Shown: positions 4,658-31,437 of the stretch, in pieces
How the letters are laid out: the number at the start of each line of letters is the position of its first letter
Position numbering within the stretch: position 1 is the stretch's first letter
NCBI GenBank assembly: GCA_964633715.1
Contig: CAZWHQ010000010.1
Coordinates: 26,263 to 90,262 of the forward strand
Direction of reading: 5' to 3'
DNA length: 64,000 nucleotides
Source: an uncultured Eubacteriales bacterium
GTDB lineage: Bacteria; Acidobacteriota; Aminicenantia; Aminicenantales; Aminicenantaceae
Notes under the pieces: model-generated
Databases searched by the model: none
Seen by the model: only the letters and a program-made list of their open reading frames with translations
Told to the model about the DNA's origin: nothing
Program-made: the position numbers and the translations under genes

Positions 4658-4674
4658 AGTCTCTTTGTTGAAGA

Positions 4675-10160: not shown

Positions 10161-11498
10161 CTATTGACCTTCAATACAGTAGAGATTTTTATATCCGCGC
10201 AGAAACAACTGGTTTCCGACAACAACGGGTGAAGCGTTAAAATTGTCATCCAGTTGGTTTTTTGCCAGTATGTCAAAATTGGGGCCGTGTTTGATCACAA
10301 AGGCCATTCCATTTTGTCCAAGGATGATGATTTTGTTGCTGGCCACAATGGGGGACGCGAAAATATTCCCCATTCCTTCAAGCCGCTGATTGCTGTAGAA
10401 AGCTTTCCCTGTTTTTGCATCAAAGCAGGAGAGGATACCATTATTGCTCTTGAGAAAATACAGGGAATCTTCGAAGAGCAGAGGAGAAGGTGCATAAGGT
10501 GTATCTTGATCAAATTTCCAAATGATCGCATCCGTACCGGTGATGTTCCCCTTGGCCTCGGAAAGACGAATGGCCAGAAGCGCATTTCCTCGATAACCGC
10601 TCATCAGATAGACAACCCCCTTGGCTTCCACCGGCATGGGGATGGCGTTCATTGTCATTCCGGCACATTCCCAGATCAGATCTCCGGTGGCAAGATCATA
10701 GCTCCGGATCAGTGCCGTTGCGCTGGTGATCACCTGAGGTTTTCCATTGTTTTCAACAATCAAAGGTGAAGCCCAGGAAGTTCCTTCATCGCGGTCGACT
10801 TTCCAAATGTCCTTTCCCGTCTTTTTATCGAGAGCGATGATGAACGACTGCCCCTCATGGTCCCATGTGACGACAATTTTATCGCCGTAGAGGGCAGGAG
10901 AACTGCCTTCACCAAAATTCATTCTTTTCTTCAACTGGCCAAAATCCCGATCCCATTTGACATGGCCCTCCATGTCCAGACAATACAGTCCCCGGGAACC
11001 AAAGTAGGCATAGATGTGTTCGCCGTCTGTCAGAGGAGAATTTGAGGCCCAGCTGCCGAACTGGTGCGTCCCTTCCTGAGGCCATTCTTCCTTGACTGTT
11101 GTCTGCCAGAGGATTTTCCCGTCATTCCGGTCCAGAGCCATCACAACAAACTTATGGATTTTATTCGTCCTCGATGAGGGCATCCCGCGGCCTTGTGCAG
11201 TACCTCCAGCCGGCTCTTCGGGTTGGCCCTCTTTTTCGGTCTCCACGGCCGTGGTCAGATAGATTCTATTTCCCCAGATGATAGGGGTGGAATGGCCCTT
11301 CCCAGGGATGGCGATTTTCCATTTGATATTTTTTGTCTCGCTCCACTCAGATGGGAAATTTCCATTGGGAGAGACACCGTTGTCAAGAGGACCCCGCCAC
11401 TGCGGCCAGTTATTTTCGATGTCCGCCCCATTCTCATAAGCTAAAAAAAAGCTCGAACAGACGACTAAAAGACTCATCAACAAAGCAAATTTTTTCAT
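10161..11498 (-). CDS. PQQ-like beta-propeller repeat protein (BamB-like fold), secreted; paralog 1 of 6 in this window.
   Basis: Signal peptide followed by the N-terminal NWPQWRGP motif and PIIWGNRIYLTTA. Repeated W/G-rich blade signatures follow. AAGGAG lies upstream. Confidence 0.75.
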   Translation of the reverse strand: MKKFALLMSLLVVCSSFFLAYENGADIENNWPQWRGPLDNGVSPNGNFPSEWSETKNIKWKIAIPGKGHSTPIIWGNRIYLTTAVETEKEGQPEEPAGGTAQGRGMPSSRTNKIHKFVVMALDRNDGKILWQTTVKEEWPQEGTHQFGSWASNSPLTDGEHIYAYFGSRGLYCLDMEGHVKWDRDFGQLKKRMNFGEGSSPALYGDKIVVTWDHEGQSFIIALDKKTGKDIWKVDRDEGTSWASPLIVENNGKPQVITSATALIRSYDLATGDLIWECAGMTMNAIPMPVEAKGVVYLMSGYRGNALLAIRLSEAKGNITGTDAIIWKFDQDTPYAPSPLLFEDSLYFLKSNNGILSCFDAKTGKAFYSNQRLEGMGNIFASPIVASNKIIILGQNGMAFVIKHGPNFDILAKNQLDDNFNASPVVVGNQLFLRGYKNLYCIEGQ

Positions 11499-11527
11499 TC
11501 TTGTGGATCTCCTTATAAATTGTGGAA

Positions 11528-12901
11528 CTATTCTGCAATACAGTACAAATGGGTTGATGTTCGGATAAAAAGCTGTGATCCTGAGACGGCTGGGGACGCC
11601 AGTGTATAACTCCCGTCAAGCTCATTCGTTGCAAGAAGTTTGAATTCCTTCCCTACAGAAATAATGGATGTCACGGCTCTTTCATTGATGATATAGAGTT
11701 TCCCATCCGAAAGAATGGGAGAGGCGCTCACGATTGCCTCCGTAGTAGATTCCGGTCCCCATATTTGTTCTCCTGTTTTTGCGTCCAGACATGTCACAAG
11801 GCCTCTGTCATCGACCATATAAAAATATGTGCCGTCACAGACCGTGGAGGGAACATCCGGGCCGGCTGCCCCTTCATATTTCCAGACCAGATGGCTCTCC
11901 GTGATGTCTCCTGTCCCTCCGACCTTAAGAGCCAGAAGAGGTTTTTTCCGGGAGGGCGCATAGATTATTCCATCCACAACAATCGGCGTGGGAACGATGC
12001 GGTAATTTGAGCGCTTTAGAGGATTTAATCCGGCGGCCCGCCAGATCTCTTTTCCTGTCTTAAAATCATGGCCTGTGACATAATCCCCTCCCGAGATAAC
12101 GATCTGCGTCTGTCCCCGGTATTGAAGGACAACGGGAGTCGTGTAAGCATCGGGGGATTCCCTTTCTGCATCCGTCGGGCGCTCCTGATGCCACAGGACT
12201 TTTCCTGACTTGGCCTCAAAGGAAACGATATAAGAGGGGTCATCCGTGCGCATCCCATGGAGGACCTCAACAATGAGGCTGCCATCGTGCAGCAGCGGTG
12301 AAGATCCATAACCCCAATTGTGACCAAAGGGACCGTAGTCTTTTTGCAGATCTTTTTTCCAGATTGATTTACCGTCCATATCAAAACAAAAGATTTTGCC
12401 CGTCCCGGTCACTACCCACACATTTTGCCCATCTGTAACAGGAGAAGGCGTAGAGTCGTTTTGTTTGTTGTGTACCTGGTTTTTATTATCCAGCTCTCTC
12501 TGCCAGAGAATCTTCCCATCCTTTTTGGAAATACAGAGTAAAAACAGTTTTGATCCTCCAGGATCCCTGCCGGGCCTCCGGCTTCTTTGAGTGCCCTGAG
12601 CTTGTTCTTTCTGTGCAGGCTTTTCGGAAGGGCCAGGTTCAGGACTGGATTCTGCTTTGGATGGAGATGTGATAAATATCCGGTTGCCCCAAATAATAGG
12701 AGTTGCCGCACTCCAAGAAGGCAGTTCTGTTTTCCAGACTATATTTTCAGTGAGACTCCACTTCATGGGAAGGTTTACGGCATCGGTGATTCCGTTATGA
12801 AGAGGTCCTCTCCAATGAGGCCAATTTTCTTCAGCCTGGAGATATCCAAAAACACCAAAAAGGGCCACTATTGAGGCCAGGGTCAAAATCAATTTCTTCA
12901 T
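11528..12901 (-). CDS. PQQ-like beta-propeller repeat protein, secreted; paralog 2, in tandem with paralog 1.
   Basis: Carries NWPHWRGPLHNG and PIIWGNRIFITSP motifs. A Ser/Pro/Glu-rich linker insert is present. Confidence 0.75.
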   Translation of the reverse strand: MKKLILTLASIVALFGVFGYLQAEENWPHWRGPLHNGITDAVNLPMKWSLTENIVWKTELPSWSAATPIIWGNRIFITSPSKAESSPEPGPSEKPAQKEQAQGTQRSRRPGRDPGGSKLFLLCISKKDGKILWQRELDNKNQVHNKQNDSTPSPVTDGQNVWVVTGTGKIFCFDMDGKSIWKKDLQKDYGPFGHNWGYGSSPLLHDGSLIVEVLHGMRTDDPSYIVSFEAKSGKVLWHQERPTDAERESPDAYTTPVVLQYRGQTQIVISGGDYVTGHDFKTGKEIWRAAGLNPLKRSNYRIVPTPIVVDGIIYAPSRKKPLLALKVGGTGDITESHLVWKYEGAAGPDVPSTVCDGTYFYMVDDRGLVTCLDAKTGEQIWGPESTTEAIVSASPILSDGKLYIINERAVTSIISVGKEFKLLATNELDGSYTLASPAVSGSQLFIRTSTHLYCIAE

Positions 12902-12966
12902 TTACCTTCTCCTGATTTTACTCACTTGGATGTTAAAAACACTTTTTATTTAGACGCAGAAAAGAT

Positions 12967-15900
12967 CTATTCCTTTCTTAAAGCTGGAGAAAGATCTTCT
13001 TTTAAGGCCATTTTCGCCGCTAAATACGTCCACAATGCTCCATTGAGACCAACTATAATAAATACTATAAGTATAGTAGGATAAGGGATTTCAGCACCCG
13101 GTGTCAACAGGGAAGGCAGAGTCGCCATGAGTGCCGCCAAAATTCCATATAAAATGCCAGCCGCTAGAAGTGTTATATGCTCGGACAAAACGATGGCCTG
13201 AATCGATTTTTTCGAAAAACCAACAGCACGGAGCAGGGCCAATTCTCCCTGGCGTTCTTTGATATTGCGCCAAACAACAATCCCCAATCCAAAACTTCCC
13301 AGCAGCAGGCCAAAACTCCCAAGAATAAGAAATATGGACAGATAGGTGTTCTGAACGGCATTAAACTCTGCCAACCGATTCGGTGCAGACATAATATCTA
13401 ATCCCAAATCCTGCATAGCCCAGGCTAGTTCATCCAAAGCTTCTCCACTATTCTCGGGTGAACTGTCAACAAGAAAAATTCTGTAGCCACTGACTGAAGG
13501 ATATTTCTGGATAAAGGCCTCCTCAGAAATGATGACATTCCCCTGGAAGATTGAGTTGGATAATCCCCCGACCAATTTGATTTGGAAATTTTGCCCCCTT
13601 TCATCCACATAGGTCAGAGAGTCTCCTACGGATTTACCTAATGCCCAAACAATGACCGACAAATCTGCAACCGCCGGCACAAGGCCATCTTCCAATTGGC
13701 TATCGAGAACTGACCAAGGATTATCCGGATCGACATCCCCTGAAGTTTCGGCAAAAGTAAAGGCTCCTCTCTCTTCGAATTGTTTGGGATTGACTCCGAT
13801 CAACTGTGGATTTGTGACCTGATTGAGATTCAGGCAGCTCGCGTCATCTCCCTCTTTCACCCGGAATTGTACATATCGGAGGTCTAAAGAACGAACCTTT
13901 TCCAATCCGTAAAATTGCTGACCCTTTGTGCTGTTGAGATCATAAAGGACAGGAATTGAACTTTCCCCAAAAAGCGCAAATCCTCCTGTTCCGGATTCTC
14001 TTTTGTTGGCATCTTTGAAAGAATTGAGCCGGTTGGCCCCAACTGTAAATACAATGAACAATCCGCAGGCAAGGAGCCCGATTAGAGTGACACTGCGCAG
14101 GCGTTTTCTAGCGTTGTTCCGGATCCCGATGCGCAACAGGCTGAGCCGGGAGGACTTTTTCGGTCTGCCGATCCTCAACAGCAGGGCATTTGTCAGCGCC
14201 ATCCCACCTGTCAAAAGCAGCGTTCCCGAAATAAAAAACACCATAAAAGCCTTACCCCCCGTGCCAAAATTCGTAAAAAGCAAAAGGAGGCATACTGCGA
14301 CCACGCAGGCCAATCCAAAAACCAAACTTTTTTTTGGTCTTTTTTTACCCAAGCTGTCAAGCTTTGTTTGGCCTCTCTGCAGTGCGGCTGCAGATTGTCT
14401 GACCTGTCTTCTGGTCACCAGCCAGATTGTCAAAAAAGCGACAACACTCCCTATCAATACACCCAATAGAATGGAAAACACTCTAAGATGAATAAAAAGC
14501 ACAGATGTTCCCACAGCAGCCTGCCATACAGTTTTGAGTGCAAAAAGAACAACCTGATTGTAGATCACTCCCAAAAGAGCACCCAAAATACTGCTGACCG
14601 TGATTAGCACGGCGCCTTCAAAAAGCACCAGTCGTCTCACGCTCTTTTTCGAAAATCCCAGTGCGAGATACAGACCAATTTCTTCAGACCTTTTCTCTGT
14701 ATTAAAACCAAACAGCAGTCCTGTCAGCAACAATGCGGCTAAAACTATAAAAAAGCTCAATCCTAAAAAAAGCTCGGAAAAACTTACTGATTGTGAACTC
14801 GCCTGAAGACCGGTCTCCTTGACCGCCTGAAAGACAAATCCAAGATTGGCCGGATCCAAAACTTCTCTCAGTTTGTATTCGAGATTATTTTTATCTAAAT
14901 CCCGAAACCGGACAGCGGTGAAACTTCCAAACCTGTTGGTCCACATCTCTTGTGCCGCTTCCAGAGACACAAAAGCTTTTGGAGTTCCTCCGAAATTATC
15001 CCAATAGTCCTCATCCTTATCTCGGATTTTATCCAAATCAATAGGGATGCCGGGATTCCAGTCACGGCAGTTATCCTCTCCGGCCAACCCTGGAAAATCA
15101 GGAAGGAGATCTTTGTCAGCATAAGGCCCTTGAATAGAAACAACGTCTTTAACCTTGAAGGTCGACGTTTTTTCCTTCAAATCACGCCCTGGCCCCAACA
15201 CATAATATGTCAACTGGATATTGTCTCCCCCTCTAGCTGAGATATCTTGGGACAGCCAATCATTTATAATAATATCATCCTCTCCCATTTCAGCCGGAAC
15301 TTGAGGCATTCCAGGAGCGGAGACAAATGAGTAGGGCGCCGCTCTTGCCCCAAAGCGTATTTCATTAACAAAATAGGTTAGTACAGGTTGGGCTCCAGGA
15401 AAAAGTTGCAGGACTGTCTCCGCAATAGTGGAATCCAGAAAAATTCGATTTGATCTGAGTTCTAAAACATCAGGCTCAGAAACCTTCCGAACGTCCAGAC
15501 CAGCATCATCCAGGATCCACCTCTTTTTAAAGGCCTCATTGAGAGTGAGGATATCCAGCGGGTTGTTTTTTCGTTCCCCCACAAGCAAAACATTTGCTCG
15601 ATTGGGCAGACCCATTTCCTGAGACAAAAAAGAGATGGACACAAATACAGTCATAGGGGCGATCTGATCTGCCCTGAGATGAAACCGACCAAATTCTTCA
15701 TCTGATGCCACCGCCTTTATCCGGAAACGTCTCGCAAGCGATGACTCAGAATCCAATGCAAGAGGAGCATCCTTTGGCATGGCATCCAGTTTTTCCGCTC
15801 GCAGAAGGATTTCATCTCCGGCCTGGACACCCAATCGATTTGCCAGTTGACGGTTGACAACCGCCTCCTCAGGAGAGAGAGCCCCATAAATATCTTGGCC

Positions 15901-16260
15901 GCTGCTCAATTGACTAAAACGATCATCCACACCTAAAACTTGAATGCGGTTAATCCGGCGAGCCCCCCCATCGGCAACAGCGATTCCCCTTGTTTGAAAC
16001 AGAGGGGCAACAGGAGTGCCGAGATCATTCGAAAGATCATCTGCCAGTTGAGTCCGGAAAAAACGGTCACCCGAAGACAGGGCAAATTCAGTTTGTCCAA
16101 GTCTGTCCAACACGATCTGCCGGAGACTGAAGCGCACAGAATCCCCAATGACAAATGAGCCCACCAAAATGGCCGTGCTGACCATGGCTCCCAACACAAC
16201 CCACCGATGACTTTTGCGATAGTGAATCAGACTGCGGAATATAAGTTTTTTAAAATTCAT
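12967..16260 (-). CDS. Large ABC transporter permease with two FtsX domains (YbbP-like), 1097 aa.
   Basis: Two FtsX-type four-TM bundles are separated by large periplasmic domains. Its stop lies 5 bp before the ATPase gene. Confidence 0.8.
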   Translation of the reverse strand: MNFKKLIFRSLIHYRKSHRWVVLGAMVSTAILVGSFVIGDSVRFSLRQIVLDRLGQTEFALSSGDRFFRTQLADDLSNDLGTPVAPLFQTRGIAVADGGARRINRIQVLGVDDRFSQLSSGQDIYGALSPEEAVVNRQLANRLGVQAGDEILLRAEKLDAMPKDAPLALDSESSLARRFRIKAVASDEEFGRFHLRADQIAPMTVFVSISFLSQEMGLPNRANVLLVGERKNNPLDILTLNEAFKKRWILDDAGLDVRKVSEPDVLELRSNRIFLDSTIAETVLQLFPGAQPVLTYFVNEIRFGARAAPYSFVSAPGMPQVPAEMGEDDIIINDWLSQDISARGGDNIQLTYYVLGPGRDLKEKTSTFKVKDVVSIQGPYADKDLLPDFPGLAGEDNCRDWNPGIPIDLDKIRDKDEDYWDNFGGTPKAFVSLEAAQEMWTNRFGSFTAVRFRDLDKNNLEYKLREVLDPANLGFVFQAVKETGLQASSQSVSFSELFLGLSFFIVLAALLLTGLLFGFNTEKRSEEIGLYLALGFSKKSVRRLVLFEGAVLITVSSILGALLGVIYNQVVLFALKTVWQAAVGTSVLFIHLRVFSILLGVLIGSVVAFLTIWLVTRRQVRQSAAALQRGQTKLDSLGKKRPKKSLVFGLACVVAVCLLLLFTNFGTGGKAFMVFFISGTLLLTGGMALTNALLLRIGRPKKSSRLSLLRIGIRNNARKRLRSVTLIGLLACGLFIVFTVGANRLNSFKDANKRESGTGGFALFGESSIPVLYDLNSTKGQQFYGLEKVRSLDLRYVQFRVKEGDDASCLNLNQVTNPQLIGVNPKQFEERGAFTFAETSGDVDPDNPWSVLDSQLEDGLVPAVADLSVIVWALGKSVGDSLTYVDERGQNFQIKLVGGLSNSIFQGNVIISEEAFIQKYPSVSGYRIFLVDSSPENSGEALDELAWAMQDLGLDIMSAPNRLAEFNAVQNTYLSIFLILGSFGLLLGSFGLGIVVWRNIKERQGELALLRAVGFSKKSIQAIVLSEHITLLAAGILYGILAALMATLPSLLTPGAEIPYPTILIVFIIVGLNGALWTYLAAKMALKEDLSPALRKE

Positions 16261-16264
16261 TTTT

Positions 16265-16954
16265 TCAGAGTAATTTCAGATCCCCATCCTGAAGGCTGTA
16301 CACCTTGCCCATTAACCGAGCCATTTCTATTGAATGCGTGACTGTGATAAGGGCCACACCTTCCTCCTTGTTCAGATCTACAAGCAGATGGCCGAGCTTT
16401 TCCGAGGAGACTTTATCCAAGGATCCCGTTGGCTCATCAGCAAGGATCAGTTTGGGTGTATTGATAAGAGCCCTGACAACCGCCACCCTCTGCATCTCTC
16501 CTCCCGACAGCACAGCCGGAAAAAAGTCCAAACGTTCTTTTAGCCCGACTTTTTCAAGAAGGATTTTAGCCCTATTCATGACCTCTTCATCCGTTCTTTT
16601 CCCTCCGAAAGGTATCGTGGGGATGAGCACATTTTCCAAAACAGTGCATTGAGGGAGAAGATGATGGAGCTGAAATATAAATCCGATCTCCCTGTTTCTT
16701 ATGGCTGACAGTTCAGCGTCATCAAGATCTGCCAGGTTTTTCCCACTAAAAAAAACTTGTCCTGATGTGGGTTTATCCAGAGCACCTATTATATTGAGGA
16801 GAGTGCTCTTCCCTGATCCTGAAGGCCCTACCACAGCAACTGATTCACCCGCTTCTATTTGAAAGGATATGTTTTCCAGGACTGTCATTGCCTTTTGATC
16901 CGATTGGCCTTCAAATGATTTTGTAATTTTTTTGAGTTCAAGCAACATCGTCAT
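16265..16954 (-). CDS. ABC transporter ATP-binding protein (MacB/LolD/YbbA-like).
   Basis: Walker A GPSGSGKST, signature LSGGEMQRV and Walker B ILADEPTGSLD are all present. Confidence 0.9.
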   Translation of the reverse strand: MTMLLELKKITKSFEGQSDQKAMTVLENISFQIEAGESVAVVGPSGSGKSTLLNIIGALDKPTSGQVFFSGKNLADLDDAELSAIRNREIGFIFQLHHLLPQCTVLENVLIPTIPFGGKRTDEEVMNRAKILLEKVGLKERLDFFPAVLSGGEMQRVAVVRALINTPKLILADEPTGSLDKVSSEKLGHLLVDLNKEEGVALITVTHSIEMARLMGKVYSLQDGDLKLL

Positions 16955-18224
16955 AAATCCTCGCTATATTTTTCGCCATTGAGTCTATGGAAAACTGTTC
17001 CATAACCACCCGATGCCCCTCCTCTGCCATTTTTTGGACTCTATCCGGATCGACAAGCAGAGAACCCAGGGCATCGGCCAGCCGTTCACTCGTGTTTGGA
17101 TCGTAGAGGATTCCTCCGTTTGTCCTTTCGATGAATTCCGGATAGCAGCCCACATTTGGCTGCACAACCGGAACACCAGCGGCCAGCGCTTCGACCTGAT
17201 AGGCCCCAAAAGCTTCACCACTGGGGACAGGAACAGAAAGAAGCGTCAAGGATTTGAGAAATTGGACACGACTAAACTTTTCAAAATCCTTGAATATCTG
17301 GACATCACTCCCAAATCCATTCTTCGAGATTTTATCCAATTGTGCGTTAACATAAAATTTGTCGTCACCCGAATATCCTCCTGTCAGGTGAAGTCGAAGG
17401 TCTTTAAAGCGATTGTCTTTTTTGAGCTGAATAAAAGCGCCCACCAGTATCCCAAGACCAAAATACTCAGACATCCTGCACATGTACCCAATGACTGGAG
17501 GATCAAAGGGAAGGGGGGATTTCACATAGCCATCCAGGCATAGGCCTCCGTAAATAACTTTGATTTTTTCTGCGGGGATTTTCAGCTGCTGTTGAGATTT
17601 CTCGGAATAAAACCGGCTGGCGGTCACAAAGAGATCGACGTCTGCTGCCTTTTTGGCCATCAGATTCCATACCTGTTCCTGATAAGGTTTTTCCATCAGG
17701 TCCACCCACTCGTTCTCATCTTGAAGGGAACACACAACGCTTACACCAAGCTCACTTTTAAGTCTATGCGCCAATCCGAGCAAGAGGGCATTGGATAAAT
17801 GGACAACATCGGGAGCGATTTCATTTTCGAGATACTGGATGAGATGCTCCAACTCGGAAGCCTGCCGCCCCGTTTCTCCGTGAAGCATGGAAAGCGTCAT
17901 ATCCTCAAGCCCTGCTGCCCTTGTAGATCCAGACTTTTTTGCCGCGATGTTCAGCAGAATCTTAGAATCAAAAAACCGCTCCAACCATGCGGGCGCATGC
18001 CTGTAGAACGGTAGTTTTTCCTTCAAATAGACATTGATCGCCCCATAGAATACTGGAGTCCCAGTGATTTTTTCGCTGCTATCCAGATTTGTTGGGAGAT
18101 ACATAGGCATGCTGACAACATCATGATCCAATGAGATAAGCGATTTGAGGAGCGCCGCATCTCTAAAACAATTTTGGCAGTAGAATGTCAATCCCGATCC
18201 TGGTGTAATATACACAATTTTCAT
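16938..18224 (-). CDS. Glycosyltransferase family 4 (GT-B, group 1).
   Basis: Has the C-terminal EAFGAYQVEALAAGVPVV motif typical of GT4. It overlaps the downstream ATPase gene by 17 bp and the upstream propeller gene by 4 bp (ATGA), consistent with translational coupling. Confidence 0.8.
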   Translation of the reverse strand: MKIVYITPGSGLTFYCQNCFRDAALLKSLISLDHDVVSMPMYLPTNLDSSEKITGTPVFYGAINVYLKEKLPFYRHAPAWLERFFDSKILLNIAAKKSGSTRAAGLEDMTLSMLHGETGRQASELEHLIQYLENEIAPDVVHLSNALLLGLAHRLKSELGVSVVCSLQDENEWVDLMEKPYQEQVWNLMAKKAADVDLFVTASRFYSEKSQQQLKIPAEKIKVIYGGLCLDGYVKSPLPFDPPVIGYMCRMSEYFGLGILVGAFIQLKKDNRFKDLRLHLTGGYSGDDKFYVNAQLDKISKNGFGSDVQIFKDFEKFSRVQFLKSLTLLSVPVPSGEAFGAYQVEALAAGVPVVQPNVGCYPEFIERTNGGILYDPNTSERLADALGSLLVDPDRVQKMAEEGHRVVMEQFSIDSMAKNIARIYDDVA

Positions 18225-23544: not shown

Positions 23545-23550
23545 GGGATT

Positions 23551-25263: not shown

Positions 25264-25267
25264 CCCA

Positions 25268-26623
25268 TCAAGCCCTAAACTGTTTGATTTTTTTCTCACC
25301 GGTTCCCAAAGAATCGGCCTGTTCCTGCGTGAGCAGGCCCAGACGCACCTGTTCATACGGACAGTATGAAAAGCACCGGCCACAGCTGAGACAGGAGCCC
25401 TTGTCCACGTCATATTTGAGCTGCCGTTTGCGGCTGAAGAGGCCGATAAACTTCAGACAGATGACGAAACCGATAAAGCCTCCAAGGATCCATCCCCCGG
25501 TTTTGAACTGCTTCTGGATCGCTTTGGCTTCACTAAATAGCTCCTCGGTCGGTTTCCCCGAAGTGCGGAAGGCTTTGGTTTCATCGGTCATTTCTGTGCG
25601 CTGTCCGGAATTTTCGAGTAGAATTTCCTCGGCAAGAGAGACCGTGGCGTGCTGACGCGAAAGAGGAATGTTGAGAAGAGACCCCACCCAACCGGTACCA
25701 AATACCAGAAGCGGCAGGAGAATGAAAACCAGGGCCAAGCGGCGGATGTCCACATCCTTTCCCTTGGAGGGAGGGCCCTCATCGGCTTTTTGGATGGCTC
25801 CAAAGGGACAGGATTCTTCACACAACCGGCAGTTGTTGCACTCATCGGGAGTGATCGATACATGCCGTTTCGACAGGCGGGACATCCAGCTCAAGAGAAC
25901 TCCATAGGGACAGAGGAACCGGCAGTAGGGTCTGGCAATGACCGTCCCCAAAACCAGCATGGACATCCCAAAAATCACCATATTAAAATCCGCACCGAAA
26001 CGGAAAAAACCGATAAAAGGATCGTACTGACAGATGATAAAACCTGTTCCTGTGACCGCAAACAGCACGGCCAACCCCAGGTAGATATAGGGCAGCAGTC
26101 CGAGCACATTTTCCAGGCCTATGGAAACTCGGACAGGTTTGAGAACGACAACGTCCTGAATGGCGCCGAGCGGACAGACCGCCGCACAAAAAGTCCGGCC
26201 GTAAAAAAGCGCCACAAAGAGCGGCAGGATAAAAAAGACGATGACAGATACAGGGATGGCATAGGCGGGATTAAACAACGCCAAACTCACATTCTGGATG
26301 GCCCCGATTGAACAGACACATCCTCTCCTGATAAAGCCAAAGTACACCAGAGAAAACACCATCAGAATAAATATGTTGCGCCGTGATCTCAACTTGTAGG
26401 CAAAATAGGTCGCCAAAAACAACGCGGCCGCCAAAACAAAAATATCGACATACTCCCATACCGTGGCCCGGGGTGAAGGAGAGAGCAGCTCAGGCCGGAC
26501 ATATCCCGATTCAAAATCGGGTTTGGGAAAACGCTCTTGAATCTGAGAGAGGCCGAGGAGAGGGAGAAGCAACAACATCGATCCAAGAAATACTTTCACT
26601 CTGAACTGTCGTCTATTTTTCAT
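25268..26623 (-). CDS. NapH/MauN-family membrane polyferredoxin (4Fe-4S binding integral membrane protein).
   Basis: Two membrane-embedded CxxxCP motifs, CAAVCPLG and CRFLCPYG, are present. Cytoplasmic 4Fe-4S motifs CNNCRLCEESCP and CLSCGRCFSYCP are present. Several TM helices. The start is placed at MKNRRQF, 26623. The track ORF extends to 26839 with a non-signal-like extension. Confidence 0.7.
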   Translation of the reverse strand: MKNRRQFRVKVFLGSMLLLLPLLGLSQIQERFPKPDFESGYVRPELLSPSPRATVWEYVDIFVLAAALFLATYFAYKLRSRRNIFILMVFSLVYFGFIRRGCVCSIGAIQNVSLALFNPAYAIPVSVIVFFILPLFVALFYGRTFCAAVCPLGAIQDVVVLKPVRVSIGLENVLGLLPYIYLGLAVLFAVTGTGFIICQYDPFIGFFRFGADFNMVIFGMSMLVLGTVIARPYCRFLCPYGVLLSWMSRLSKRHVSITPDECNNCRLCEESCPFGAIQKADEGPPSKGKDVDIRRLALVFILLPLLVFGTGWVGSLLNIPLSRQHATVSLAEEILLENSGQRTEMTDETKAFRTSGKPTEELFSEAKAIQKQFKTGGWILGGFIGFVICLKFIGLFSRKRQLKYDVDKGSCLSCGRCFSYCPYEQVRLGLLTQEQADSLGTGEKKIKQFRA

Positions 26624-26634
26624 GGGATGGCACG

Positions 26635-27222
26635 TTATCCTTGGAGATAACTCTGGCTCTCGTCTCCTCTCAGAATATAGGGCCGGCTCGCCGGCACACG
26701 TTTCCACGCTTGAGAAGGACATCTCCGAGCGATCGAACATTCGTTGCAGTTTAAACAGCGGTCGTGTTTGTTCTGCAGATAGAGGGAACCGTTTCCGAAG
26801 GAGGCGCAGCCTTTCACGCATTTTCCGCAACCAATGCACAGTTCCTCGTCGAGGGTGTACTCAAAATAGGGTATTTCCACAAAGCTCCGCGTGATCGCCC
26901 CGGAGGGACAGAGCTGGCTCTCCGCCCCTGTGTCCCTGTCCTTGGCCCCAGGCTGAAGATACCCGCTGCACAAATCACAGTAGCCGCACATGGAAAAGGA
27001 GTGAACACATTTTACCGAAGATTGCGGAAGAACACAGTTGACCGCACACTTTTCACATTGAATGCAGATGTTGGGATCCAACTGCCAGACCATCTCTTCC
27101 GAAGACGACTTGCTGAACAAAATCCCTGCAAGGCCAGCGATAGTCAAACCGGTTATGGAATGAAGGCTCTTCCTGATAAAATCTCTTCGTTTTATCGGAT
27201 TTTTTTGCCCAGTTCTTTTCAT
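26635..27222 (-). CDS. NapG/MauM-family periplasmic ferredoxin with a Tat signal.
   Basis: Tat motif KRRDFIRK plus hydrophobic segment. Four 4Fe-4S cysteine motifs are present: CIQCEKCAVNC, CGYCDLCSGY, CIGCGKCVKGC and CLNCNECSIARRCP. Confidence 0.75.
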   Translation of the reverse strand: MKRTGQKNPIKRRDFIRKSLHSITGLTIAGLAGILFSKSSSEEMVWQLDPNICIQCEKCAVNCVLPQSSVKCVHSFSMCGYCDLCSGYLQPGAKDRDTGAESQLCPSGAITRSFVEIPYFEYTLDEELCIGCGKCVKGCASFGNGSLYLQNKHDRCLNCNECSIARRCPSQAWKRVPASRPYILRGDESQSYLQG

Positions 27223-27476
27223 TTACCCCCCCCAGCTTCCGACAATTTATTCCTTGCCTTTAGGGCTGAAGGTTTCTGGCAGTCAGAGATTTTCGAACAA
27301 TTCCTGCAGGGCAGATCTAAAGAACAGGATTCGCTTTTCCCGGAATTGGCCTGTCCTCTCCACCCCAGAAACAATCCCGAAAAGACGAGACCACTCAAGA
27401 CAACTGCCCTCATACCATCCTTTAAAAAATCACGTCTAGTTTTCACTTTTAATTGATTCCTCATTTGAAATCTCAC
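27219..27476 (-). CDS. Small Tat-signal protein with a Cys-rich C-terminus, about 80 aa, function unknown.
   Basis: Twin-arginine motif TRRDFLK and hydrophobic segment AVVLSGLVFSGLFLGW. Mature part CSLDLPCRNCSKISDC. 4-bp overlap with the NapG-like start. Confidence 0.35.
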   Translation of the reverse strand: MRFQMRNQLKVKTRRDFLKDGMRAVVLSGLVFSGLFLGWRGQANSGKSESCSLDLPCRNCSKISDCQKPSALKARNKLSEAGGGK

Positions 27477-28479
27477 CTTGTTGCTTTTCCTGTTCCTGAT
27501 TTTTTGTAAAAATCCGAACGAGTTTTTGTTTGGGATCCAGAATAAGTATCCTTTGGTCTGAATCCACGGCTAAATCCAGACCAACCGTGCCTTCGATAAA
27601 CTTGTCAGGTCCGGCTACAACGGACACCATCTCTCCAATCTGATTATAGACCTTAACTCTGGCTATCCCTTTTTCACTTGTTACAAAGGATCCATCTTCC
27701 AGAACAATAAAATGCGATGGATTACAGCAACCGCAGAATCCACCTATGTCCATGGAGAATTCTCCCCAAGAAGTCCTGAAACCTCCGTCCAATGTATAAT
27801 TTTCGAGTGAATGCCGGCCGGTGTCGGCTGCCCAGAGAAAACCATCCGGATCGACAGCCACATCGAAATACGGGCTGGGAATGATAAATCCAGGAACATC
27901 TTTGTCCTCGTCTTTCTCCCCAATTCTTTGAAGAAGGTTTCCATCTTTATCAAACTTCCAGACAATCAGATTTCCGGCATCGGCCACAAAGACAAATTTT
28001 TCCGACAGAGCTATCGAAGTGAAAATCGCGCCCGTACTCGGTGATTTCCAATTGGCTTTTTTTGTGCCGGACAAATCATAAACCTCAACAATATCATTCA
28101 TCCCAACATAGACATCACGATTGTTGTCGACTGCCAGACAGTGAACGGATTCGTCCACAGAAAAAGTGGATAAATGGATTCCATCCCTGCTGAAAATGAA
28201 AAATGTATTGTCCCCAGAGACATAGATGTTGTCCTCCGGCCCGACAGCAAGTCCGTAAACATGGGGCAGTTCGAGTGGAATTCGGCCAACCTCAGAAAAA
28301 TGAACAAGACTGGGATCACTCACCTTGAATCGATCTATGTCATATTCAAAAGGATTTTTCTGTTTTCTCAAAGAATTTTCACGGACAGCTCTGTAACCGA
28401 AAAAAAGAATTCCTGCCAAGGAGACAAGAATGATGATCCCCGTCAAAATCTGATTTTGTTTTGAACTGTTTCCTTTCAT
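27436..28479 (-). CDS. NHL-repeat (six-bladed beta-propeller) protein with an N-terminal membrane anchor.
   Basis: N-terminal TM segment ILTGIIILVSLAGILFFGY. Repeated blade motifs such as VYVSGDN, VYVGMND, VFVADAGN and LWAADTG are typical of NHL repeats. Confidence 0.6.
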   Translation of the reverse strand: MKGNSSKQNQILTGIIILVSLAGILFFGYRAVRENSLRKQKNPFEYDIDRFKVSDPSLVHFSEVGRIPLELPHVYGLAVGPEDNIYVSGDNTFFIFSRDGIHLSTFSVDESVHCLAVDNNRDVYVGMNDIVEVYDLSGTKKANWKSPSTGAIFTSIALSEKFVFVADAGNLIVWKFDKDGNLLQRIGEKDEDKDVPGFIIPSPYFDVAVDPDGFLWAADTGRHSLENYTLDGGFRTSWGEFSMDIGGFCGCCNPSHFIVLEDGSFVTSEKGIARVKVYNQIGEMVSVVAGPDKFIEGTVGLDLAVDSDQRILILDPKQKLVRIFTKNQEQEKQQGEISNEESIKSEN

Positions 28480-28487
28480 CGTTTTTC

Positions 28488-29924
28488 CTATTGCGGCCGT
28501 GCTCTCAAATCGATGCAGACCAAGTTGTGTGAATCCCTCGCCAAAAGCTGGCCGCGGACAATGGCTAGAGGCCCCCAGGCATCCACCCCATTGAGCACCT
28601 TGGCCTGCGCAAGCGGTTTGTATTCCGTGGCGCTGGCTTCGAAAACCGTCAATACGCCATCGTCACTCATGACAAAAAACTTGTCGTCGGCCACGATATA
28701 GGGGCCCAGGCCAAAACGGTGGGTTTTCCCGCTCGACCAGATAAAAGAGCTGATGTCATCGGGATTGACACAGACCATCTGGTTGCGGAGCGGCCCCGCA
28801 TCTTTGGGAAGAATCGAAAAGAGATGGCCTTTGTAATAGATGGGCGTCTGTTGCTCCGAGGCCATCCCCTCCTCCGGTTTTACGGACTGAAGGGCTTCGA
28901 CGCTAAAGACATCCCCTTCACGCGTTAACCTCACCATGAGGCTTCCCGCACCGTAGCCCGCCGTTAAGAATACCCTCCCGTCACCGATTGAAACAGGAGA
29001 AGGAGCAATTACGTTGTTGTTCCACAGTGTGGATTCGAACAGAACCTGACCGGCGGAATCCTCTTCCGCAGAGACGCCAATAAAACCGCCAAGGGCACAG
29101 TAGATGTACATCCTAACGCCATGGATGGTAAAGGGTAAAACCGACGAATGAGACATCCCCCATTGGTTTGGATTGGGGACTTCCCATACGATCTCCCCTG
29201 TTTCCAGATCCACTGCAATGAGGAGAGACGAGCCTCCGACTCCAATCACGGCCAGCGAACCGTCGATCAGAGGACACTGGCCGGTATACCAGAGCGGCTC
29301 TGGAGATTCATATTCTCTTTGAAGGTCAATCCCCCATTTAAAATCACCCGTAATCGCGTCTACACACATCACCTGGCATTTAGGGCCGATGGTCACCACA
29401 TATTTGTCTGTCACCGCGGGAACCGTCCGCGACATCCCATGGTTTCTTTTGATGTTGATCTCATAACCCCGCCGCCAGATTTCGGATCCGTCCTCGAAGG
29501 AAAAACAGCGCAGAATATCCGCCCGTTCTTCTTCATCGTAGTCGAGCACATAAATACATCCGTTGGCCACGACAGGACCCGCGTGCCCTTCCCCAAGAGC
29601 GATGGAGTATAAAATATCCGGCCCCGACTCCCCCCAAGAGTGAGATAGAGAAACATTTTCCCTGCTGATGTTGTCGTAGAAGGCACCGCGGAATCTCGGC
29701 CAACTCCCCTGCAAAGTTGAAGGCAGACCTTCGAATGACGTAAACAGGGCTCCAATCTCTACGGCTTCCCCCAGGCTGACAAAACCTTCAGGCCGGTTGT
29801 CCCTGCCCGGAAGGCCCTCGACAAAGTCTTTGACGGGATTGTGGTAAAACCACCAGCTCAAAAGGAACAGGGCAACAAATGCTGTCGCGGTGAAGGTTAT
29901 TCGTTGAAGAGTTTTTTCATTCAT
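28488..29924 (-). CDS. PQQ-like beta-propeller repeat protein; paralog 5, with an N-terminal anchor or signal.
   Basis: N-terminal hydrophobic segment, then repeated propeller blades. Related to the other paralogs but more divergent. It lacks the WPxWRGP motif. Confidence 0.65.
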   Translation of the reverse strand: MNEKTLQRITFTATAFVALFLLSWWFYHNPVKDFVEGLPGRDNRPEGFVSLGEAVEIGALFTSFEGLPSTLQGSWPRFRGAFYDNISRENVSLSHSWGESGPDILYSIALGEGHAGPVVANGCIYVLDYDEEERADILRCFSFEDGSEIWRRGYEINIKRNHGMSRTVPAVTDKYVVTIGPKCQVMCVDAITGDFKWGIDLQREYESPEPLWYTGQCPLIDGSLAVIGVGGSSLLIAVDLETGEIVWEVPNPNQWGMSHSSVLPFTIHGVRMYIYCALGGFIGVSAEEDSAGQVLFESTLWNNNVIAPSPVSIGDGRVFLTAGYGAGSLMVRLTREGDVFSVEALQSVKPEEGMASEQQTPIYYKGHLFSILPKDAGPLRNQMVCVNPDDISSFIWSSGKTHRFGLGPYIVADDKFFVMSDDGVLTVFEASATEYKPLAQAKVLNGVDAWGPLAIVRGQLLARDSHNLVCIDLRARPQ

Positions 29925-30045
29925 CTAACTAAAATTATTATAGCCCATATCCGCATCTCTTTTACACACTAATCCTATTGAATTACTTGAATAATCCAAG
30001 ATGAGTAATAGCGTTTTTTTGTTCGACACTTCAAGTACGCACTCT

Positions 30046-31407
30046 TTATTTCAGGCTTACGGCCACCAGATTGTGCTGGGTTCTGAAGTACAACCTGCCC
30101 TCTGAAATCGCGGGTGTGGCCAGCATTTTTTCATTCATGGAATTGGTCGCAAGGATCTCGAACTCCGGGCCGCCTTTGACAACATACACATTTCCCTCCT
30201 CGCTCGTGAAATACAGGTTTCCGCCGGACGCCACTCCTGAGGCGGCAAAGGCCTCCATCTTGGCCAGTTGCTCTTTGTAGACGGATTCACCCGTTTTCGC
30301 ATCGAAACAATTCAGCAGGCCGTTCCAGTTCATGTTATAGAGATATCCGTCGTAGACAAGAGGGGACGGAATGTAAGCCCCTCCCCGTTTTACACTCCAG
30401 ACAATCTTATCACTGGTAGTGGTGTCGGCATCGAGCGAGATATCTCCCTTCGCATCCAGCTTTATGGCATAAATCGGCGACAGTCGCCCGTGCGCCCCGT
30501 TGATGTACACCAAATCGCCCGCCACCACGGGAGTCGGGATGGGGATGTCTCCGCCGCCTGAAATCTTCCAGATCTCCTTTCCCGTCCGGAAGTCATAACT
30601 TCCGATGTGTTTAAAACCGTTGACAATGATCTGAGTATTTTGTTCGCCGACATAAATCGTTGGGGTGCTCCATGTGGGGTAATCCTCCCGAGGGGTTCGC
30701 CAGAGTTCTTTGCCCGTGGCAGCGTCCAGAGCCGCCAGAAAGGCGGTGTTCAGGGCGTCACACTGAACCACAACCACGCCCTTGTGGATGACGGGCGAAC
30801 TGGCAAATCCCCACTGGGCCGTGGGCATAGTAAAAAAAGCCGAATCCAAAAGCCCAAAATTCTTTTTCCAGAGCAGCTCCCCCTCCATGTCGTAGCAGTA
30901 GAGGCCTTCGGAGCCGAAAAAAGCCACAACGTGCTGCCCATCGGTCGCCGCCGTTGAGTTGGCGTGTGTGGCCATTGGATGGCGTTTGACTTTGGGCACT
31001 CCCTCGTACGCCGTCTTTTCCCAGAGGATCTCTCCGGAATTTTTATCCAGGCAGAAAACCTTCCATGTCTGCACGGAATTATCATAGACAGGAGTGACAC
31101 TCCCATAAAGGCCAGTTTTGAGTTCGGGAGATTCATTTTCACTGACTGCGGTCGTCACAAACAACCTGTCCCCCCAGATAATCGGGCTGGAATGGGCCAA
31201 CCCGGGAATGAGTGTTGTCCACAGGATGTTTTCCCCTGCCTCCCGGTTCCAGGACACAGGAAGAGGCGATCCCTCAACAAATCCGCGGGCGTAAGGGCCT
31301 CGGAAACTCGGCCAGTTTATCCCTTCATCTTTATTCTGGCCCATAGATACAAAACCAGTACACATCAGAATAAATAGGACTAACAAACATCTGTATACTC
31401 TTGACAC
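30046..31407 (-). CDS. PQQ-like beta-propeller repeat protein, secreted; paralog 6.
   Basis: Contains INWPSFRGPYARG and PIIWGDRLFVTTA motifs. The track start, a TTG at 31437, abuts a -10 box. I prefer the GTG at 31407 (MSRVYRCLLVLFILMCTGFVSMG, a clean signal peptide) with AGGAG about 10 nt upstream. Confidence 0.7.
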   Translation of the reverse strand: MSRVYRCLLVLFILMCTGFVSMGQNKDEGINWPSFRGPYARGFVEGSPLPVSWNREAGENILWTTLIPGLAHSSPIIWGDRLFVTTAVSENESPELKTGLYGSVTPVYDNSVQTWKVFCLDKNSGEILWEKTAYEGVPKVKRHPMATHANSTAATDGQHVVAFFGSEGLYCYDMEGELLWKKNFGLLDSAFFTMPTAQWGFASSPVIHKGVVVVQCDALNTAFLAALDAATGKELWRTPREDYPTWSTPTIYVGEQNTQIIVNGFKHIGSYDFRTGKEIWKISGGGDIPIPTPVVAGDLVYINGAHGRLSPIYAIKLDAKGDISLDADTTTSDKIVWSVKRGGAYIPSPLVYDGYLYNMNWNGLLNCFDAKTGESVYKEQLAKMEAFAASGVASGGNLYFTSEEGNVYVVKGGPEFEILATNSMNEKMLATPAISEGRLYFRTQHNLVAVSLK

Positions 31408-31437
31408 TATTGACTCTCTCCTTTGTATAGAACTCAA

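Follow-up and report, generated by a model that had tools for sequence, protein, structure and literature searches.

A collinear cluster of exported beta-propellers and electron-transfer genes shared by anaerobic bacteria of many phyla

Pairs of NuoEF and GltD-like proteins function alone in other anaerobes, as Stn/Nfn-type enzymes. Among beta-propellers, tetrathionate hydrolase has been described as a PQQ-family enzyme (PMC11818568). No published description was found of the cluster reported here. The window, a 64,000-nucleotide stretch of contig CAZWHQ010000010.1, contains the following array, listed in the direction of its coding strand.

30046-31407, minus: P6, exported 8-bladed PQQ_2 propeller of the Wxx[WF]RGP subfamily, accessory and variable in position; motif WPSFRG at 31297-31314
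28488-29924, minus: P5, PQQ_2 propeller with an N-terminal anchor; motif WPRFRG at 29685-29702
27436-28479, minus: NHL-repeat 6-bladed propeller with an N-terminal anchor (in 51/54 loci)
27219-27476, minus: small Tat 4-Cys protein, an unannotated ORF of 81-85 aa
26635-27222, minus: NapG-like periplasmic ferredoxin, Tat signal KRRDFIRK at 27172-27198 (58/61 loci)
25268-26623, minus: NapH/NosH-type polytopic membrane Fe-S protein, 451 aa (68/71 loci)
23551-25263, minus: P4, three N-terminal TM helices followed by a PQQ_2 propeller; motif WPGFRG at 24667-24684
21190-23544, minus: NuoE-NuoF fusion, 461.6 bits against TIGR01959 (71/75 loci)
19610-21193, minus: GltD-like flavoprotein, 412.7 bits against PRK12814, under the cutoff (60/63 loci)
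18221-19381, minus: P3, PF13570-type regular-repeat propeller with a lipoprotein-like signal; motif WPIFRG at 19256-19273
16938-18224, minus: cytoplasmic GT4-family glycosyltransferase (42/53 loci)
16265-16954, minus: ABC ATPase of LolD/MacB/FtsE type (38/42 loci)
12967-16260, minus: duplicated FtsX-domain permease, 1097 aa (31/31 loci)
11528-12901, minus: P2, secreted Wxx[WF]RGP propeller, accessory; motif WPHWRG at 12806-12823
10161-11498, minus: P1, secreted Wxx[WF]RGP propeller, accessory, last gene of the array; motif WPQWRG at 11391-11408

A sequence-only reading of this DNA had noted six propeller genes on one strand within 21 kb, and this is borne out: all six ORFs are on the minus strand and exceed the PF13360 (PQQ_2) gathering score of 27.6 bits (98.5, 112.4, 134.7, 86.0, 48.7 and 83.5 bits for P1 to P6). 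When every ORF of 200 aa or more in the window was scanned with HMMs, only these six came up as propellers and the remaining 43 kb yielded none, so their clustering goes beyond chance. Each is preceded by a signal peptide, a lipobox or a TM anchor. P1 to P6 are exported 8-bladed beta-propellers of the PQQ_2 superfamily and are neither PQQ dehydrogenases nor BamB, in keeping with the earlier description of a set of related, PQQ-like exported proteins whose function is uncharacterised. In none of the propellers could a redox cofactor site be recognised, and the CxxCH motif is absent from all 15 proteins of the array. P6 has an alternative TTG start at 31437. A longer P4 ORF, reaching 25413, would overlap the upstream gene; the start at 25263 is supported by ortholog lengths of ∼552-586 aa in 120/120 among the matches listed. 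The window is also rich in sulfatases and peptidases and contains a fucosidase.

The motif WPx[WF]RG marks where each propeller starts (residues 31, 27, 37, 194, 75 and 32 in P1 to P6). It had been taken for a near-identical N-terminal signature of four proteins, whereas it occurs in all six; the fourth of those signatures, ILWTTPIPIPGYNSPIIWG, is the first blade of P4, whose motif is NWPGFRGA. Of 110 full-length family representatives, 103 have the motif in its relaxed form, Wxx[WF]RG. The motif lies downstream of the signal or anchor, is modelled confidently in P1 (residues 31-50, pLDDT >90) and is found as deep as residue 439 in multidomain relatives, which rules out a role as a secretion tag.

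Pairwise blastp comparisons align P1, P2, P4 and P6 over their full length (28-34% identity, E 1e-51 to 1e-91), P5 collinearly with these four (21-24%, E 1e-8 to 1e-11), and P3 with the others at the level of repeats only; P3 is also the sole propeller to pass the PF13570 cutoff (210 bits, cutoff 133). The claim of six paralogs is therefore narrowed. Judged by these alignments, P1, P2, P4 and P6 are true paralogs and P5 is a distant relative, whereas P3 is no close paralog and belongs to a different, regular-repeat subfamily.

A genome scan anchored on P4, using one genome per species, gave 120 confirmed matches, of which 80 loci were kept. Neighbour counts are given as present over loci where the region is available and, the loci having been chosen via P4, are conditional on its presence. 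Eighty species-level genomes have the cluster, and in 78 of these its genes are collinear and on one strand. Its carriers are anaerobic bacteria labelled as at least 10 phyla, including Aminicenantes, KSB1, Calditrichota, Latescibacterota, Bacteroidota, Spirochaetota, Lentisphaerota and Hydrogenedentota, with the qualification that taxonomic labels of MAGs are partly unreliable. With 38-60% protein identity, it is unlikely that the cross-phylum loci are mis-binned copies of one lineage. The core gene order is P5, NHL propeller, small Tat 4-Cys protein, NapG-like, NapH-like and P4, followed by NuoEF, GltD-like, P3, GT4, ABC ATPase and the duplicated FtsX permease. The collinear core thus comprises ∼12 envelope and electron-transfer genes, of which P5 (47/52 loci), P4 and P3 (49/58 loci) are fixed members. 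That the intervening genes form a coherent system with the propellers had gone unnoticed.

These comparisons bear on the proposal that one secreted propeller was recently duplicated in this lineage, in tandem, to give a substrate-binding family with unrelated genes in between. Six superfamily members on a single strand within 21 kb, the adjacency of P1 and P2, and the variation of P6, P2 and P1 in presence and position among genomes would all fit such an expansion. Positional orthologs of each copy, however, are 50-90% identical whereas the paralogs are 21-34% identical, indicating that the duplications are ancient; the constancy of the P5, P4 and P3 slots in genomes labelled as at least 10 phyla places them before these lineages; and P3 comes from another subfamily. 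Local expansion by repeated duplication, as first proposed, is already largely refuted by synteny, and we consider it very improbable. In other phyla a full locus has 3-7 propeller ORFs, so multiple propellers are a property of the system. At the edges of the cluster, P1, P2 and P6 are accessory paralogs from the P4-type subfamily that vary between lineages. In loci of Aminicenantes type the P6 ortholog (61-74% identity) is found upstream of P5, but one ortholog (60%) sits between GT4 and ABC in locus L030, and in L003 and L004 the slot holds a different propeller (24% identity). A P2 ortholog (79%) is present in CP070750 (L001) and none in L002, and P1 orthologs follow FtsX in both. The comparison with PVC-type genomes does not hold for this window: the genome is one of Aminicenantes/Acidobacteriota, its nearest relatives being labelled Candidatus Aminicenantes or Acidobacteriota. 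The propeller family also occurs in Planctomycetota and Verrucomicrobiota.

The cluster genes are under purifying selection (dN/dS among orthologs, 0.02-0.15), and conservation of the top face, formed by the blade D-to-A loops, is specific to each ortholog group. Each group keeps its own residue set in these loops, in agreement with the earlier view that the copies are specialised. The Ser/Pro/Glu-rich insert attributed to P2 is likewise real (aa 81-118, 12548-12661); it is disordered, and its site corresponds to disorder in the P1 model (pLDDT <50 at residues 96-103). P4 does carry three N-terminal TM helices (24769-25263) in place of a signal peptide, with a near-invariant loop helix, QIRALDLLARKAYFT, within 24979-25053, but it is not the only such propeller, as P5 also begins with an anchor and has no obvious cleavable signal.

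The NapG-like protein has 17 cysteines, sufficient for about four [4Fe-4S] clusters, and conservation reaches at least 93% for its R12, R13 and F15 and for the clustered Cys motifs (58 sequences). The NapH-like protein contains two CxxxCP and two CxxCxxCxxxCP motifs, all at least 93% conserved, and scores 50.6 bits against TIGR02163, under the cutoff; a gene caller also gives 451 aa on the JGI copy of the contig. The small Tat protein has a twin-arginine signal or anchor (TRRDFLKDG) followed by C-x5-C-x2-C-x5-C; it matched no Pfam or NCBIfam family. tblastn finds homologous ORFs at the corresponding position in at least 35 loci, and a strict pattern finds them in 34/50. In the NHL protein, vicinal cysteines C251-C252 lie in a conserved G-C-C-N-P (27712-27732), a loop modelled at low confidence (pLDDT <50, residues 240-251). 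The NuoE-NuoF fusion, a cytoplasmic NADH/FMN module, has additional 2Fe-2S and 2x[4Fe-4S] domains, and the GltD-like protein combines an N-terminal 2Fe-2S domain, a GltD-type Fe-S domain, an FAD/NAD(P)-binding fold and a C-terminal Cys-rich region. GT4 and ABC/FtsX have no evident place in a redox system.

The array might instead consist of two or three independent operons (a periplasmic propeller/NapGH module, a cytoplasmic NuoEF-GltD transhydrogenase and a P3-GT4-ABC-FtsX export module) that are neighbours by chance or through shared regulation. Such a division would accommodate the 228-nt gap ahead of P3 with its weak promoter-like site (19454-19426), the sharp dS contrast between the window and locus L005 (1.6-3.7 for NapG, NapH and P4 vs 0.5-0.8 for NuoEF through ABC), the loci in some Planctomycetota, Verrucomicrobiota and Lentisphaerota that hold partial sets without P3, GT4 and the upstream half, and the stand-alone Stn/Nfn-type pairs elsewhere. 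It is nevertheless distinctly unlikely in view of the constant order in 78/80 loci, with P4 placed between NapH and NuoEF at 4 and 6 nt; GltD and P3 are ∼10 nt apart in other genomes, and promoter and terminator matches are no better than chance. Adjacent genes overlap by 4 nt at NuoEF/GltD, P3/GT4 and small Tat ORF/NapG.

P5 is the best-conserved propeller of the cluster (ortholog identity 50-79% across phyla) and is as conserved as the redox subunits (50-56%, Aminicenantes vs Bacteroidota). Conservation of 93% or more across 48 sequences applies to 112 of its 478 residues, mostly in polar D-to-A and B-to-C loop motifs; KRNHGxSRTxP, WYTGQCP, MSHxS, EQQTP, PKDxGxxR, RFGLGP and DxW all lie in top-face loops. 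Its best PDB sequence match reaches an E value of 2e-4 only. We infer that P5 is a candidate catalytic or ligand-binding subunit. The propellers could alternatively be stand-alone, cofactor-less periplasmic hydrolases or lyases that receive no electrons, each paralog having its own substrate, either sulfur compounds (as for tetrathionate hydrolase) or glycans (as for lambda-carrageenase-type propellers). The group-specific top faces and the abundance of sulfatases, a fucosidase and peptidases in the window agree with this, as do the structures of tetrathionate hydrolase (6L8A, 7CQY; E ∼1e-16), which with BamB and YxaL are the best structural neighbours of the P1 AlphaFold model (8 blades, pLDDT 89.5). 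Identity to that enzyme is only 14-16%, however, its catalytic residues are unmatched, and it is left unexplained why two Tat Fe-S proteins, NapH and NuoEF are invariably linked to the propellers, so that we hold this account to be decidedly improbable.

BamB structures are the best matches of all to P1 (E 2.5e-17; TM 0.62-0.79, normalised to target length), and the propellers might be non-catalytic scaffolds that, with the Lol/MacB-like ABC transporter and GT4, assemble or export an outer-membrane protein, lipoprotein or glycolipid, the Fe-S genes serving another purpose or just supplying reducing power for maturation. P3, with regular repeats of ∼40 residues, is of BamB size and has a lipoprotein-like signal in several phyla (LVYTC-AKK in the window); the ATPase is nearest LolD, MacB and DevA (253 bits against LolD, cutoff 307.75 not reached); and the FtsX permease has ∼10 TM helices and two large periplasmic domains (∼457 and ∼235 aa). 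All six propellers, however, score 49-154 bits with BamB models whose cutoffs are 285 and 423, and identity to BamB is 15-18%. The conserved polar and charged residues around the axis of the P5 top face are typical of a ligand-binding or active site and less so of edge-strand docking, and the tight coupling of P4 and P5 to NapG, NapH and NuoEF would be unexplained. A scaffolding role is on balance unlikely.

We tentatively favour, at somewhat less than even confidence, a reading of the cluster as a heme-free and molybdenum-free relay that passes NAD(P)H electrons to the periplasm and ends at membrane-tethered propellers. As a counterpoint, NuoEF and the GltD-like protein could be a self-contained, Stn/Nfn-like transhydrogenase that is merely co-transcribed. 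In the relay, the cytoplasmic NuoEF/GltD-like flavo-Fe-S proteins would oxidise NAD(P)H and pass electrons to the cytoplasmic clusters of the NapH-like protein, and from there across to the Tat-exported NapG-like ferredoxin, perhaps also to the small Tat 4-Cys protein, with the tethered propellers facing the periplasm as the endpoint. We infer that electrons run in this direction, that the components associate physically and that P5 is catalytic, as well as all that concerns the substrate. The polar top-face pocket of P5, together with the vicinal Cys-Cys of the NHL protein, would be the candidate terminal site for a periplasmic or envelope substrate. P3, GT4 and ABC/FtsX would constitute an associated export or assembly module, and the soluble P1, P2 and P6 may serve as accessory binding modules.

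All six propeller genes (P1-P6) proposed in the sequence-only reading were found as open reading frames on the minus strand, and each product exceeds the PQQ_2 (PF13360) gathering cutoff of 27.6 bits, applied to the whole-protein score. A profile scan of all ORFs of at least 200 aa in the window returned P1-P6 as the only propellers and none across the other 43 kb; the clustering is therefore real. The genes are interleaved with redox and transport genes, mostly with overlaps or spacings of a few nucleotides.

Genes of the array in order of transcription. Bits refer to PF13360. Fractions give loci with the gene over loci where that region is available, among loci chosen through P4, and are conditional on P4 being there.
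P6: 30046-31407, minus strand, propeller, signal peptide, 83.5 bits
P5: 28488-29924, minus strand, propeller, N-terminal anchor, 48.7 bits; 47/52
NHL-repeat propeller; 51/54
Small ORF: 27219-27476, minus strand, unannotated Tat protein of 81-85 aa with four Cys
NapG-like Tat ferredoxin; 58/61
NapH-like polytopic Fe-S protein; 68/71
P4: 23551-25263, minus strand, propeller, three TM helices, 86.0 bits
NuoE-NuoF fusion (NuoEF); 71/75
GltD-like flavoprotein; 60/63
P3: 18221-19381, minus strand, propeller, lipoprotein-like signal, 134.7 bits; 49/58
GT4 glycosyltransferase; 42/53
LolD/MacB-like ABC ATPase; 38/42
Duplicated FtsX permease (1097 aa); 31/31
P2: 11528-12901, minus strand, propeller, signal peptide, 112.4 bits
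P1: 10161-11498, minus strand, propeller, signal peptide, 98.5 bits

The start of P4 at 25263 is favored because a longer ORF runs into the upstream gene and because the orthologs measure ∼552-586 aa in all 120 cases listed. P4 is also the paralog for which membrane helices in place of a signal peptide had been predicted, correctly. The sequence WPx[WF]RG directly follows the export signal in all six propellers; what had been taken as a fourth N-terminal signature is the first blade of P4 and not the motif. Of the P1 orthologs, 117/118 carry the motif in its relaxed form, Wxx[WF]RG, as do 120/120 P4 orthologs and 103 of 110 full-length family representatives; in multidomain relatives it can sit as far in as residue 439. 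In the AlphaFold model of P1 (44 sequences; pLDDT 89.5, pTM 0.88), residues 31-50, which include the motif, have pLDDT values >90, suggesting that this region is an ordered piece of the propeller domain. Order in this model, near-universal occurrence, and a deep position in multidomain proteins together identify the motif as a family signature of the propeller N-terminus rather than a secretion tag.

DSSP assigns eight four-stranded blades to the P1 model, closed by the N-terminal strand 58-63; the eight-bladed fold refers to P1, the one propeller modeled, whose best structural matches are also 8-bladed. Among solved structures, BamB, tetrathionate hydrolase, and YxaL come closest, with identities of 14-19%. 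BamB (YfgL), the top Foldseek match, is likewise an exported, 8-bladed PQQ_2-type protein without a cofactor, and P3 resembles it in size and in carrying a lipoprotein-like signal. The propellers may thus be BamB-like scaffolds. However, identity to BamB is 15-18%, redox and ABC genes surround the propellers here, and family annotation finds no Bam component among the cluster genes. BamB is not known to carry the Wxx[WF]RGP signature at its N-terminus. Membership in the BamB families was rejected: against cutoffs of 285.2 (TIGR03300) and 423 (NF008351), P3 scores best with 153.6 and 112.4 bits, respectively, and the others reach 18-58 bits.

Alternatively, the propellers may act as stand-alone hydrolases in the manner of tetrathionate hydrolase from Acidithiobacillus ferrooxidans (PDB 6L8A/7CQY), a cofactor-less, periplasm-facing, 8-bladed enzyme of the PQQ family that is similar in length to P1 and among its best structural matches. 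This likeness is at the level of the fold only (14-16% identity, E ∼1e-16), and the setting of tetrathionate hydrolase is acidophile sulfur oxidation without Fe-S partners. A P5 profile gives marginal matches in the PDB (E ≥2e-4), tetrathionate hydrolase among them at 1.5e-3. PQQ-dependent alcohol and methanol dehydrogenases share the superfamily and show weak local sequence matches, but are ∼600 aa long compared with ∼445 aa here. The six proteins score 17.9-102.4 bits against a cutoff of 480 for TIGR03075 and also miss the cutoff of 833 for TIGR03074, and membership was rejected. No cytochrome partner for the propellers was recognized, CxxCH being absent from all cluster proteins. P1-P6 add new members to an already known superfamily.

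The sequence-only reading had treated the six as paralogs that arose by repeated local duplication. All-versus-all blastp upholds the paralogy of P1, P2, P4, and P6, which align with one another over their full length and collinearly at 28-34% identity (E 1e-51 to 1e-91). P5 is distant, matching these four collinearly at 21-24% identity (E 1e-8 to 1e-11), and P3 is no close paralog, its similarity to the other five (∼19-29% in local segments, best E 4e-12) consisting of out-of-register, repeat-level matches. P3 scores 210.1 bits against PF13570 (Beta-prop_ACSF4; cutoff 133), versus 17-60 bits for the other five. The blastp levels and PF13570 thus resolve the array into four true paralogs and one distant relative (P5), with P3 falling in a sister subfamily. 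P3 also matches the designed 'Cake' repeat propellers (E 7e-69) and, as judged from sequence, resembles the highly regular propellers that served as templates for them. With the Wxx[WF]RGP subfamily defined operationally by full-length collinear similarity plus an N-terminal Wxx[WF]RG(P), P1, P2, P4, and P6 belong to it, P5 does so only distantly, and P3 has the motif without the collinear similarity. A P1 search sizes the family at 30,011, 12,999, and 3,243 clusters at 50% identity for E thresholds of 1e-3, 1e-10, and 1e-30, with members labeled Acidobacteriota, Blastocatellia, Planctomycetota, and Akkermansiaceae.

Orthologs of the individual propellers are 50-90% identical, compared with 21-34% for the paralogs. 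The duplications are therefore older than the spread of the cluster, which effectively refutes a recent local expansion. Because synonymous sites are saturated between paralogs at 21-34% identity, dN/dS was taken between orthologs, where it is 0.02-0.15 with dS often saturated. The expectation that the copies differ at the top face held: each ortholog group keeps its own set of residues in the D-to-A loops, which ring the top-face axis of the propeller. In blade 2, for example, the loop reads E..H..GSWAS.SP in P1, P....DTG.AA.T in P4, and KRNHG.SRT.PA in P5. On these sequence patterns, the copies are specialized at the top face and non-redundant.

P5 is conserved at the level of the redox subunits, with 112 of 478 residues ≥93% conserved among 48 sequences from many phyla. 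Its conserved polar motifs (KRNHGxSRTxP, WYTGQCP, MSHxS, TAGYGxG, EQQTP, PKDxGxxR, RFGLGP, and DxW) fall in top-face loops when aligned to the secondary structure of P1. Within the TM domain of P4, one loop helix is near-invariant. In the NHL protein, a G-C-C-N-P sequence is kept across phyla, F248 is conserved as well, and H256 does not vary within Aminicenantes. The NHL model renders the Cys-Cys loop poorly, and a fold search with it returned generic NHL domains only (TRIM, Brat, PknD) and no functional lead.

The NapH-like protein is polytopic, with multiple TM segments, and contains two CxxxCP and two CxxCxxCxxxCP motifs; C146/C150-P151, C234/C238-P239, C262..C272-P273, and C411..C421-P422 are ≥93% conserved (n = 63). 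Its score of 50.6 bits against TIGR02163 (cutoff 213) marks it, by sequence, as a distant relative and not a NapH equivalog. The NapG-like protein carries the twin-arginine signal and four 4Fe-4S Cys motifs of NapG-type proteins, with R12-R13-x-F15 and the clustered Cys motifs from C53 to C168 ≥93% conserved (n = 58), and no NCBIfam model scores above its cutoff. The small ORF fills an apparent 213-nt gap between the NHL and NapG-like genes. Its product carries a twin-arginine signal or anchor and, after it, C-x5-C-x2-C-x5-C; the stop codon of the ORF overlaps the start of the NapG-like gene. The ORF has no Pfam or NCBIfam match and is missing from the gene calls of three related contigs. It is conserved in place: tblastn finds it in at least 35 loci from several phyla, and a strict pattern finds it in 34 of 50.

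On the cytoplasmic side, the array encodes NuoE 2Fe-2S, NuoF FMN/4Fe-4S, and ferredoxin domains together with a GltD-like FAD/Fe-S protein whose N-terminus is a NuoG-like 2Fe-2S domain. This domain set is identical to that of Stn/Nfn-type transhydrogenases (NuoEF/HydBC-like plus GltD/NfnB-like); here, however, NuoE and NuoF are fused, the genes sit between membrane-anchored and exported propellers, and the activity is a prediction. The transport genes have the make-up of a MacB/LolCDE-type (type VII) ABC system: an FtsX permease with two FtsX stretches (80.8 bits) and large periplasmic domains of ∼457 and ∼235 aa, and a LolD/MacB-like ATPase that scores 253 bits on LolD, under the equivalog cutoff of 307.75. 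Promoter and terminator scans gave matches at chance level, and no operon boundaries were therefore set. Rfam and tRNA scans of the whole window found none.

Other genes of the window are also of note. Downstream of P1, after 86 nt and on the same strand, comes a nitronate-monooxygenase/FabK-like gene (8977-10074, minus strand), which is probably outside the system because it is not conserved beside the cluster in CP070750. Just downstream of the array, on the opposite strand, is a KamA-family radical SAM aminomutase-like protein (7075-8967, plus strand; TIGR00238, 329 bits) with an unusual ∼210-aa N-terminal extension. Degradative exoenzymes at 3188-6246, 38029-39612, 41719-45746, and 50612-52567 comprise an alpha-L-fucosidase that bears an F5/8 type C domain, two sulfatases, and three genes of the M14 carboxypeptidase-like kind, of which two lie side by side, a richness that fits a polymer-degrading sediment anaerobe. 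A 285-aa exported protein with a C-terminal GGMGGRGGGMGGRGGG repeat tail and without a Pfam match (59549-60406, plus strand) precedes a multi-TM protein of 1151 aa (60479-63934, plus strand) that matches Golvesin_C at its C-terminus and no other domain.

The array may also be made up of juxtaposed independent modules. The DNA was placed taxonomically by the labels of its close relatives, Candidatus Aminicenantes or Acidobacteriota, and four contigs of this lineage have an identical gene order. A scan of one genome per species with a P4 ortholog alignment and the patterns QIRALDLLA and [DE]Fx[ED]GFYSSP gave 120 confirmed matches, from which 80 loci were kept; these are labeled Aminicenantes, Acidobacteriota, Latescibacterota, KSB1, Calditrichota, Bacteroidota, Spirochaetota, Planctomycetota, Verrucomicrobiota, Lentisphaerota, and Hydrogenedentota. 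By tblastn with the window proteins, the core order is kept on a single strand in 78/80 loci. Full loci have three to seven propeller genes, namely the core P5, P4, and P3 plus zero to four divergent extras upstream of P5. P6, P2, and P1 are the variable members of the array. P6 orthologs lie upstream of P5 in Aminicenantes-type loci and between GT4 and ABC in one Calditrichia locus; P2 has no copy in one related locus (L002); and loci labeled KSB1 and 'Cytophagia' have P1-like genes in the interval from GT4 to ABC.

Within the 80 loci, the only further recurrent genes are the small Tat ORF and a 123-aa ORF with the motif GPGLLESxYE. The latter occurs in four Bacteroidota loci (L050, 9174-9545; L054, 11990-12376; L057, 15892-16263; L068, 14389-14760), inserted on either the P4 side or the GltD side of NuoEF, leaves the gene order undisturbed, and looks like a small selfish insertion. 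In a comparison of one contig pair, the window and its closest relative (L005), dS is 1.6-3.7 for NapG, NapH, and P4 and 0.5-0.8 from NuoEF through the ABC ATPase; this abrupt jump at the P4/NuoEF junction suggests a recombination breakpoint inside the cluster, at ∼23545. Several metagenome-assembled genomes bear labels that are evidently wrong ('uncultured Eubacteriales', 'Bathyarchaeia archaeon', 'uncultured Cytophagia', 'Promethearchaeota archaeon'; L005, L007, L011, L033, L074, L029/L032/L036/L042/L045, and protein P0217). Their P4 copies are 56-77% identical (41% in L074), and these genomes are likely mis-binned or mislabeled.

The analysis shows a conserved system of ∼12 genes with three components. 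The first is the cytoplasmic NAD(P)H/flavin/Fe-S module, the second pairs a transmembrane with a periplasmic Fe-S protein of the NapH/NapG type, and the third comprises several periplasm-facing propellers with the GT4 and MacB-type ABC module. Clade II nos clusters place NosGH beside a periplasmic beta-propeller N2O reductase, an ABC transporter, and a lipoprotein. NapGH/NosGH and the present cluster have in common a Tat poly-ferredoxin and a NapH-type membrane Fe-S protein adjoining a periplasmic propeller, whose activity here is putative, an ABC transporter, and a lipoprotein, and NosGH feeding the NosZ propeller would follow a similar logic, with only NapG and NapH homologous to nos genes. 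The NapG- and NapH-like proteins both score under the NCBIfam cutoffs, however, the propellers are of the PQQ_2 type without a cupredoxin domain, the ABC partner is of the MacB/FtsX type, and a NuoEF/GltD NAD(P)H module stands in place of the quinol route. The cluster was rejected as a nos cluster, as family annotation reports no NosZ, cupredoxin, NosD, NosY, or NosL among its proteins and only the NapG/NapH-like pair is common to both. Among known kinds of system, we would place it with the NapGH type, in which electrons are delivered in the periplasm to a propeller protein. Curated family sets hold no match for the cluster as a whole, and full-text literature searches found no published description; it stands a fair chance of being a new kind of system.

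This organization leads us to infer that electrons are relayed from NAD(P)H into the periplasm, with P5 and the NHL protein as end points. P4 may serve as a membrane adaptor, P3, GT4, and ABC/FtsX may form an assembly or export arm, and P1, P2, and P6 could be accessory binding modules. A bolder proposal, which we offer tentatively and consider rather doubtful, is that the cluster is a new type of periplasm-directed electron sink or repair system in which an Fe-S relay leads into beta-propeller catalysis. The relay would be fed by NAD(P)H and independent of quinone, heme, and molybdenum; electrons would pass from NuoEF/GltD through the NapH-like protein and the Tat ferredoxins to P5, the candidate catalytic subunit, assisted by the Cys-Cys NHL propeller. 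P1, P2, and P6, and one to four divergent copies in other phyla, would define the substrate range; candidate substrates are sulfur species, oxidants, or an envelope glycoconjugate that GT4 would synthesize and the FtsX transporter would export. Such a sink or repair system would be widespread among anaerobic bacteria of sediments, in the FCB and PVC groups as well as in Acidobacteriota and Spirochaetota.

The system can be recognized by the P4 loop helix QIRALDLLA, KRNHGxSRTxP and WYTGQCP in P5, GCCNP in the NHL protein, and the small Tat ORF. PQQ-like 'BamB' is among the commonest uninformative annotations in sediment and PVC/FCB genomes, and the P5, P4, and P3 ortholog groups now have a fixed setting of Fe-S, NADH, and ABC genes, which gives them a first testable functional frame. 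If the relay is true, it would be a cytochrome-free NAD(P)H-to-periplasm route common to fermentative anaerobes labeled as at least 10 phyla, with a bearing on redox balancing and on sulfur or oxidant turnover in sediments, as well as on beta-propellers as scaffolds for redox enzymes.
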